This document shows positions 6,661 to 7,081 of a stretch of 12,244 bases of DNA, one piece after another (the stretch's first letter is position 1; each line of letters begins with the position of its first letter). The DNA comes from a virus. Taxonomy: Duplodnaviria; Heunggongvirae; Uroviricota; Caudoviricetes. The DNA is taken from the IMG/VR virus record IMGVR_UViG_3300027312_000135. One strand, written 5' to 3'. The position numbers were made by a program, and so were the translations under genes. The notes under the pieces are model-generated. The model was given only the letters and a program-made list of their open reading frames with translations, searched no databases and was not told the DNA's origin.

Positions 6661-6773
6661 TGAAAATTCGTTACTTCCAGAAAGCGCAGGAGCTTTCACG
6701 CGAGGCCCATCTGTTCGGCGACAGCGCGAAGTGGGCTATGGCAATGCTGTTGTTACGGAGAGCGCACCAGTGA
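6660..6773 (+). CDS. Hypothetical small protein (37 aa)
   Basis: ATG at 6660 overlaps the previous stop; its own TGA stop overlaps the GTG start of the next gene (GTGA). Translation MKIRYFQKAQELSREAHLFGDSAKWAMAMLLLRRAHQ. Confidence 0.3.
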   Translation: MKIRYFQKAQELSREAHLFGDSAKWAMAMLLLRRAHQ

Positions 6774-7081
6774 AACTTTCATGGCGAGCAAAACAGGAAG
6801 TCGAGGAGATTATGAAAAATCTCTCTGAGACCGATTTAGAGCGCATCGGCGATGAAGCCGACTCGATGATGGACCAGCACAAGATTAACCCGCTGATGAC
6901 CGCGCTGTGCGCGTTCCTGCCTAAGCACTTCGATTACCCCGCTGTCGAGCTGGTCGACGAAGACGACGAGCAGTACGAAGCCGCCGAAAACTTCCTGCGC
7001 GATGCGCTGGTGAAAGTCGCTAAGCGGGACATGGCGATCGCCATCTGGAAAAGCCGAAACAGCTTCGATGAGGTGGCGTGA
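6770..7081 (+). CDS. Hypothetical acidic protein (about 103 aa) immediately upstream of the exonuclease
   Basis: GTG at 6770 with a GGAGAG SD 7 nt upstream (alternative ATG at 6812); stop overlaps the exonuclease start (TGATG). Acidic stretch VELVDEDDEQYEAAENF. Confidence 0.5.
   Translation: MKLSWRAKQEVEEIMKNLSETDLERIGDEADSMMDQHKINPLMTALCAFLPKHFDYPAVELVDEDDEQYEAAENFLRDALVKVAKRDMAIAIWKSRNSFDEVA

Follow-up and report, generated by a model that had tools for sequence, protein, structure and literature searches.

The window, a 12,244-nucleotide (nt) viral DNA stretch (IMG/VR record IMGVR_UViG_3300027312_000135), is the early region of a lambdoid prophage whose nearest protein relatives are from Pantoea. 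A gene on its plus strand (positions 6770 to 7081, with a GTG start and a TGA stop at 7079 to 7081) encodes a 103-amino-acid (aa) acidic protein. Profile comparisons and a predicted structure show that residues ~30 to 90 of this protein are homologous to lambda Gam (GamS or Red-gamma; PF06064; PDB entries 2UUZ, 2UV1, and 5MBV), and they support its identification as a remote Gam homologue, beyond the mere occupancy of Gam's place in the operon. The family to which the protein belongs is best explained as a sequence type of its own within the lambda Gam fold, the third after those of lambda Gam and phi80 GamL. Judging from this predicted relationship, its most likely role is that of a GamS-like DNA mimic, which would probably dimerize, bind RecBCD, and inhibit it. 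An earlier note on this DNA had described a strongly acidic protein of roughly 100 aa, coupled to a PD-(D/E)xK exonuclease gene and a Red-beta-like gene, in the position of lambda gam but with no sequence similarity to Gam, and had suggested it as a possible host-nuclease inhibitor, a suggestion that the present results support.

Profile and predicted-fold similarity to lambda Gam

The C-terminal half of the acidic protein appeared Gam-like by eye, and the relationship was therefore tested in three ways. With hhalign, an alignment of 46 diverse family members was compared with an alignment of 16 GamS-type sequences obtained from a separate search. The two profiles matched with a probability of 86.6% (P = 4.5e-6, score 35.2), and window protein residues 30 to 87 were colinear with GamS residues 32 to 91, with an identity of ~18 to 21% between the acidic protein and lambda Gam over the aligned part. 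Reversed profiles scored only 10 to 11, and 400 column shuffles gave a mean of 11 (standard deviation, 2.2) and a maximum of 20.8. The match did not depend on the closest relatives of the window protein: removal of its own clade left the probability at 85.5%, and random halves of the family gave 57 to 88%. When the C-terminal parts alone were compared with Gam, the probability rose to 93.4% (P = 2.5e-7). The predicted homologous core thus maps to positions 6857 to 7030 of the plus strand (codons 30 to 87) and takes in predicted helices 41-52, 56-63, and 66-102; on the side of GamS, the homology is confined to residues ~30 to 92. At the start of the last helix lies an acidic patch, DEDDEQYE, which aligned with DDDVEFQE of Gam.

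The second test used HMMER to search all 177,635 distinct PDB sequences with a hidden Markov model (HMM) of the family. Lambda Gam (5mbv_A and 2uuz_A) was the best natural match (E = 0.0056), and the match covered the same region as the hhalign alignment. The only PDB sequence that scored higher was an artificial alpha-repeat protein, in which no single stretch passed. The family HMM gave all 16 Gam sequences 13 to 25 bits. The reciprocal Gam HMM gave family members no more than 9.4 bits, indicating that no Gam sequence was hidden in the 46-member alignment. Detection depended on the depth of the family alignment. A PDB profile search with a narrow alignment of 10 sequences did not find Gam, and with an alignment of 25 sequences, the hhalign probability was 0.2% when it was compared with a single Gam sequence and 0.9% when the Gam alignment was used; the Gam signal emerged only after distant members from the exhaustive search described below were added.

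The third test was structural. An AlphaFold2 (AF2) model built with the 46-sequence alignment (predicted local distance difference test score [pLDDT], 92.4; predicted template modeling score [pTM], 0.78) consisted of helices 5-16, 20-36, 41-52, 56-63, and 66-102. When this model was compared by Foldseek with 350,542 PDB chains, the top two matches were both GamS: 2uv1_B, with a template modeling (TM) score of 0.72 and a root mean square deviation (rmsd) of 2.2 Å over 73 columns (probability, 0.89), and 5mbv_E, with a TM score of 0.76 and an rmsd of 2.1 Å over 74 columns (TM values normalized to the target). All remaining PDB matches had TM scores of 0.38 or lower and rmsd values of at least 8 Å. 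The earlier note had proposed structure prediction as a check for a DNA-mimic fold, and GamS alone provided the good PDB matches. Its statement that the protein lacks similarity to Gam was correct for pairwise BLAST and Pfam but not for hhalign, hmmsearch, or Foldseek. The weight of the homology lies in the convergence of three methods on one protein, lambda GamS.

Ahead of the core lies a family-specific N-terminal segment (positions 6770 to 6856, plus strand; codons 1 to 29), for which helices 5-16 and 20-36 are predicted. Its consensus in the family is MxLxxxDxxEIxxIIxxLxxxDxExI.

The acidic family and its genomic setting

An exhaustive HMM search of 1.84 billion representative sequences (E <= 0.001) returned 54 homologous clusters at 50% identity, mostly of ~100 aa, so the acidic open reading frame (ORF) is a real gene and not a chance one. 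The family spans Enterobacterales, and its named members come from Pantoea, Erwinia, Cronobacter, Atlantibacter, Salmonella, and one unclassified Enterobacteriaceae bacterium; every one of them is annotated as "hypothetical." Phages that carry a member include Pantoea phage PA-1, Erwinia phages phiEt88 and Midgardsormr38, Cronobacter phage ENT47670, E. coli phages HK140 (gp42; positions 3501 to 3809 of locus L015), mEpX1, and Kapi1, and Salmonella phage SEN22 (SEN22_33; positions 3498 to 3809 of locus L016). In Pfam, NCBIfam, and PHROGs, the only assignment was to phrog_3486, of "unknown function," apart from subthreshold noise (Imm68 and PSD4); the Imm68 matches were weak and confined to a few members. 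When the region was compared by megablast with phages and E. coli genomes, nothing matched. The window protein has an isoelectric point (pI) of 4.55 and a net charge of -10 (23 D/E versus 13 K/R residues), and the family medians are 102.5 aa, pI 4.70, and a net charge of -9. GamS proteins have 98 aa, a median pI of 4.74, and a net charge of -10. The protein is therefore acidic to about the same degree as GamS, and "strongly" overstated its character.

The acidic gene lies in a chain of five plus-strand genes joined by stop/start overlaps. A cIII homologue (6517 to 6660; PF02061, E = 1.7e-8) opens the chain, and its stop overlaps the next ATG (TAATG). It is followed by an ORF for a basic 37-aa protein (6660 to 6773; pI 10.4) in the slot of lambda kil, which overlaps both of its neighbors and meets the acidic gene in a GTGA overlap. 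Neither Pfam nor PHROGs assigned the 37-aa protein to a family, and it did not match lambda Kil significantly; counterparts of 36 to 45 aa are present in PA-1 and in related loci L009, L010, and L012. Downstream of the acidic gene is a gene for a 272-aa PD-(D/E)xK 5'-3' exonuclease of the RecE C-terminal type (7081 to 7899; PF12684, E = 1.7e-24; phrog_412, "exonuclease VIII," E = 1.3e-106); this length is counted from ATG 7081, and homologues are also 272 aa long. An ATGA overlap connects it to a gene for a single-strand annealing protein (7896 to 8798; PF03837, E = 3.7e-30; phrog_561, E = 6e-114). The exonuclease is thus of the class named in the earlier note, and the second gene does encode an annealing protein, although one of the RecT family and not Red-beta itself. 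In lambda, the order is cIII-kil-gam-bet-exo. The order in the window (cIII, 37-aa ORF, acidic gene, exonuclease, and RecT) places the acidic gene in exactly the gam slot, in agreement with the position claimed for it. As part of the best explanation, a Pantoea lambdoid prophage would express the acidic gene from its early-left (pL) operon.

The program-made ORF list opened the frame of the acidic gene at the first GTG (6731 to 7081, 116 aa), but GTG 6770 is the best start. It is preceded by a Shine-Dalgarno-like GGAGAG (6757 to 6762, plus strand, predicted from sequence) 7 nt upstream, and it overlaps the stop of the 37-aa ORF (GTGA, 6770 to 6773). In addition, the match to phrog_3486 (E = 2e-19) begins at residue 15 of the 116-aa form, within one residue of GTG 6770, and most homologues are 101 to 105 aa long, in line with this start. 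These four observations led us to prefer GTG 6770. An in-frame ATG at 6812 (codon 15), with GAGGAG 3 nt upstream, would yield an 89-aa form, and one database entry, from Pantoea latae, is called from that codon. Such a start is reminiscent of the lambda GamL/GamS pair, but residues 1 to 14 are conserved throughout the family.

At the other end of the gene, the coupling to the exonuclease gene described in the earlier note was evident. The TGA at 7079 to 7081 overlaps the exonuclease ATG at 7081 (TGATG), and the Shine-Dalgarno sequence of the exonuclease gene, GAGGTG (7070 to 7075, plus strand), lies inside the last codons of the acidic gene (D-E-V-A). The C-terminal residues E101, V102, and A103 are kept in 86 to 93% of family members. 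This conserved E-[V/A]-A terminus coincides with GAGGTG or GAGGCG and a stop/start overlap, whichever gene comes next. The Shine-Dalgarno sequence probably contributes to the conserved C terminus of the family, and the conservation may in part reflect a nucleotide-level constraint for translational coupling.

The surroundings of the gene were compared across 15 loci, the window and 14 related ones. In every one of them (15/15), the acidic-family gene abuts or overlaps (by 1 to 11 nt) the first gene of a recombination module. Wherever cIII was recognized, in 10 loci (the window and 9 of the 14 related loci), the acidic-family gene lies downstream of it, sometimes with a kil-slot ORF between them. 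The genes that follow differ. A RecE-type (DUF3799) exonuclease gene and recT are found in the window, phiEt88, L011, and L012; L010, which is cut inside the gene after the exonuclease gene, is grouped with them. In SEN22, the same type of exonuclease gene is followed by a gene for an unassigned protein. PA-1, L006, L007, and HK140 have genes for RecT and the Mu-Gam-like protein Sipho_Gp157; L008, L009, and L013 have genes for a phrog_2489 protein and Gp157; and ENT47670 has genes for RecT and a YqaJ exonuclease. The contig of L014 ends 200 nt into the gene next to the acidic-family gene. Canonical Gam (PF06064) was seen in none of the 15 loci. A constant position next to changing phage partners suggests that the protein acts on a host target rather than on a fixed phage partner.

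Two further observations were made in these loci. The gene after the acidic gene in L008 (4318 to 5163) and L013 (415 to 1239) encodes a protein of 274 to 281 aa that PHROGs labels "exonuclease" (phrog_2489 and phrog_7838); it had no Pfam family and only a weak subthreshold match to Rad52_Rad22. Given its position before the Sipho_Gp157 gene, this protein may have an annealing rather than a nuclease function. Chi sites were absent from both strands in phiEt88 and SEN22 (0/0), and in the window, one strand had none and the other had 1, against an expectation of ~0.5 per strand. These counts are compatible with a phage that encodes an anti-RecBCD function but are too low to discriminate. A 2025 survey of lambdoid phages likewise gives 0/0 Chi sites for SEN22-type modules (PMC12315714).

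In the rest of the window, the minus strand carries replication genes P (1063 to 1773) and O (1752 to 2675) and a gene for a ParB-HTH protein. A minus-strand ORF (3961 to 4236) looks like a cro-type regulator gene from its position and a helix-turn-helix-like sequence. The plus-strand ORF at 4166 to 4909 is taken, from its position, to encode a cI-type repressor, and its counterparts in related loci carry HTH_3 and Peptidase_S24 domains. An N-like antiterminator gene (5441 to 5785; phrog_271) and a further ORF (6096 to 6368) follow on the plus strand. Directly downstream of recT is a low-GC island (8860 to 10900; 36 to 39% GC versus 52 to 60% around it). It contains a minus-strand gene for a DUF6338 membrane protein (9356 to 9943; PF19865, E = 1e-34), adjoined by three tandem paralogous ORFs of 47 to 52 aa (8864 to 9022, 9034 to 9177, and 9192 to 9335), each of which terminates in QVTQP(A/V)PPPKKP, and a plus-strand ORF of 220 aa (10243 to 10905). 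The island looks like an acquired accessory (moron) cassette.

Proposed inhibition of RecBCD and competing explanations

If the acidic protein acts as lambda Gam does, it would form a GamS-like helical dimer whose acidic C-terminal core would imitate the end of a duplex DNA. The dimer would fill the site at which the host RecBCD nuclease binds DNA, and linear phage DNA, phage recombination intermediates, and the substrates of RecE and RecT would be spared degradation. The mechanism of lambda Gam itself, a dimeric DNA mimic, is established (PMC5218532).

Several results weigh against the proposal that the acidic protein is a Gam homologue that inhibits RecBCD. Conventional searches did not connect it with Gam: the window protein did not match PF06064 when sequences were scanned singly against Pfam at E <= 1 to 10, PF06064 was absent among the 25 most frequent of 48 families listed for family members, five members (the window protein among them) had no NCBIfam match at E <= 1, and pairwise BLASTP against lambda Gam found nothing. 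The Gam alignment used with hhalign was low in diversity (Neff, 1.6). Over the N-terminal ~30 residues, the hhalign score against the N-terminal part of Gam was 7.6, compared with 7.1 ± 1.7 for shuffles. The Foldseek E values for GamS (1.3 and 2.4) were nonsignificant by themselves; such values are usual for short helical proteins. A first AF2 model, built from 25 sequences (pLDDT, 74.5), did not lead Foldseek to Gam and had no meaningful match in PDB or BFVD except for one family member. Finally, many acidic-family genes adjoin a gene for the Mu-Gam-like end-protection protein Sipho_Gp157. This argues mildly against a role in RecBCD inhibition, since two anti-RecBCD functions in one module were reported to be rare in the 2025 survey (PMC12315714).

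The failed Pfam, NCBIfam, and BLAST searches, the Foldseek E values above 1, and the weak subthreshold Imm68 matches in a few members all favor the view that the likeness to Gam is a coincidence among short acidic helical proteins, with the protein serving some other function, such as that of an anti-restriction mimic of the Ocr or ArdA type. We regard this explanation as very improbable. Three independent methods converged on one protein and on one region of it, and the reversed and shuffled controls never exceeded 21, against an observed score of 35. The anti-restriction option, which the earlier note had also raised, found no support: neither Ocr and ArdA nor other known mimics apart from Gam were among the fold matches of Foldseek in PDB and BFVD. 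The constant translational coupling to the first recombination gene could instead indicate that the protein is an accessory part of the phage's own recombination apparatus, an Arf- or Abc1-like helper that binds the annealing protein or exonuclease, and small uncharacterized proteins of RecET operons do improve recombineering in Burkholderia (PMC8313284). However, the adjacent partner varies (a RecE-type exonuclease, RecT proteins of two PHROGs, or the phrog_2489 protein), so that a fixed partner is unlikely, and the homology points to Gam, a protein that requires no phage partner. A helper role therefore appears improbable.

Retargeting of the Gam fold deserves more consideration, although we think it unlikely. 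By means of its different N-terminal helix, the protein might bind another host factor that acts at DNA ends or binds DNA (SbcCD, or a defense protein such as KwaB of Kiwa), or it might modulate RecBCD rather than block it. Its N terminus and the channel-plugging helix that Gam and GamL carry are unrelated, and the Mu-Gam-like protein with which it frequently co-occurs could already guard DNA ends. Lambda Gam has KwaB as a further target (PMC11785009), and an interaction of lambda Gam with SbcCD has been reported (cited in PMC5218532). Against retargeting, what has been conserved is the acidic dimer core, whose counterpart in Gam mimics duplex DNA on RecB and RecC, and the classical role agrees both with the position of the gene and with the lack of any second Gam in loci of the RecE/RecT type. 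On balance, inhibition of RecBCD by a GamS-like DNA mimic is the more probable function of the acidic protein.

A broader interpretation, for which the case is nearly but not quite as strong as that against it, is that the family constitutes a third lineage of Gam-fold inhibitors that kept the acidic dimer core, carries a different N-terminal "plug," and would be the missing Gam equivalent of the RecE/RecT-type and RecT/Gp157-type modules of Enterobacterales (phages HK140, mEpX1, SEN22, and phiEt88 and Pantoea prophages). RecE/RecT operons have been said to lack a Red-gamma equivalent (PMC4381043). The main text of the 2025 survey, which covered 325 lambdoid phages, names four anti-RecBCD types and no others (Gam, GamL, Abc2, and MuGam); it scores SEN22 as without an anti-RecBCD gene and credits HK140 with MuGam alone (PMC12315714). 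An acidic-family gene is present in SEN22 as well as in HK140.

If this interpretation is correct, phages scored as without anti-RecBCD function, such as those of the SEN22 type, need to be reclassified, and the new N terminus could reveal a second route of a Gam core onto RecBCD, or another target. Should the protein inhibit RecBCD, it would fill the Red-gamma gap of RecE/RecT modules, alter the classification of recombination modules, and provide a natural "gamma" that is matched to the host when recombineering is done in Pantoea, Erwinia, Cronobacter, and Salmonella. Its conserved core and replaced N-terminal helix would also make it a natural experiment for finding out which portions of Gam are required. 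Should it not inhibit RecBCD, the Gam fold would have been put to another use. In neither case is a new principle involved; the family had previously been unannotated in Pfam, NCBIfam, and PHROGs.

Comparison with Gam, GamL, and other proteins of recombination modules

Two candidate relatives and one candidate origin of the acidic protein were rejected. It is not a homologue of phi80 GamL, for which the hhalign probability was 1.2%, the family HMM gave 4.3 bits, and NCBIfam gave no match at E <= 1 for the five members scanned. Nor is it a homologue of RacC (hhalign probability of 0.3% against the E. coli K-12 protein) or a split-off piece of the long N terminus of RecE, with whose N-terminal region no similarity was detectable. 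RacC of the Rac prophage nevertheless resembles it in size (~90 aa) and in location, since its gene lies directly upstream of recE and thus in the same place before a RecE/RecT pair. For Mu Gam and Sipho_Gp157 (PF05565), as for the acidic protein, a role against RecBCD has been proposed within lambdoid recombination modules. Mu Gam and Sipho_Gp157 have another fold, belong to another family, and bind the DNA ends and not the enzyme. Sipho_Gp157 is often encoded two genes downstream of acidic-family members, as a separate gene.

The closest parallels are with the Gam proteins themselves. Like lambda Gam, the acidic protein is all helical in its predicted fold, has ~100 aa, a similar pI (~4.7 for Gam) and net charge (~-10), and an acidic patch that opens the last helix; its C-terminal ~60 residues are homologous to those of Gam by profile and predicted fold, and its gene follows cIII and the kil slot and precedes the recombination genes. 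Unlike lambda Gam, the acidic family lies below the Pfam threshold, and its N-terminal ~30 residues are unrelated to those of Gam and are predicted to form two helices. The recombination partners differ as well: Gam is found with Exo and Bet, whereas the acidic family is found with RecE-type exonuclease and RecT, with RecT and Gp157, or with other modules.

The difference at the N terminus sets the acidic family apart from the other Gam-like proteins. An N-terminal helix of the form MNAYxxxDRxE..W is common to Gam, GamL, and, judged from its first residues, Photorhabdus Plu-gamma (Plu2934), and in the RecBCD-Gam structure, this helix of Gam fits snugly into the single-stranded DNA channel of RecB (PMC5218532). 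Like the acidic protein, phi80 GamL (NF033500) and Plu-gamma are small, are encoded in the gam slot of lambdoid recombination modules, and differ too much from lambda Gam for routine detection. GamL has been reported to have a Gam-like predicted fold (PMC12315714), and Plu-gamma boosts recombineering (PMC4381043). Plu-gamma was compared only through its first residues, MNPYAVYD, which were deduced from a published primer. GamL retains the N-terminal motif of Gam (MNAYLTYDRIEE..W), with an hhalign probability of 91% over residues 1 to 26, and its C terminus showed no aligned similarity to Gam in the hhalign comparison. In sequence terms, the acidic family is the mirror image of GamL, with a Gam-like core and an N terminus of its own.

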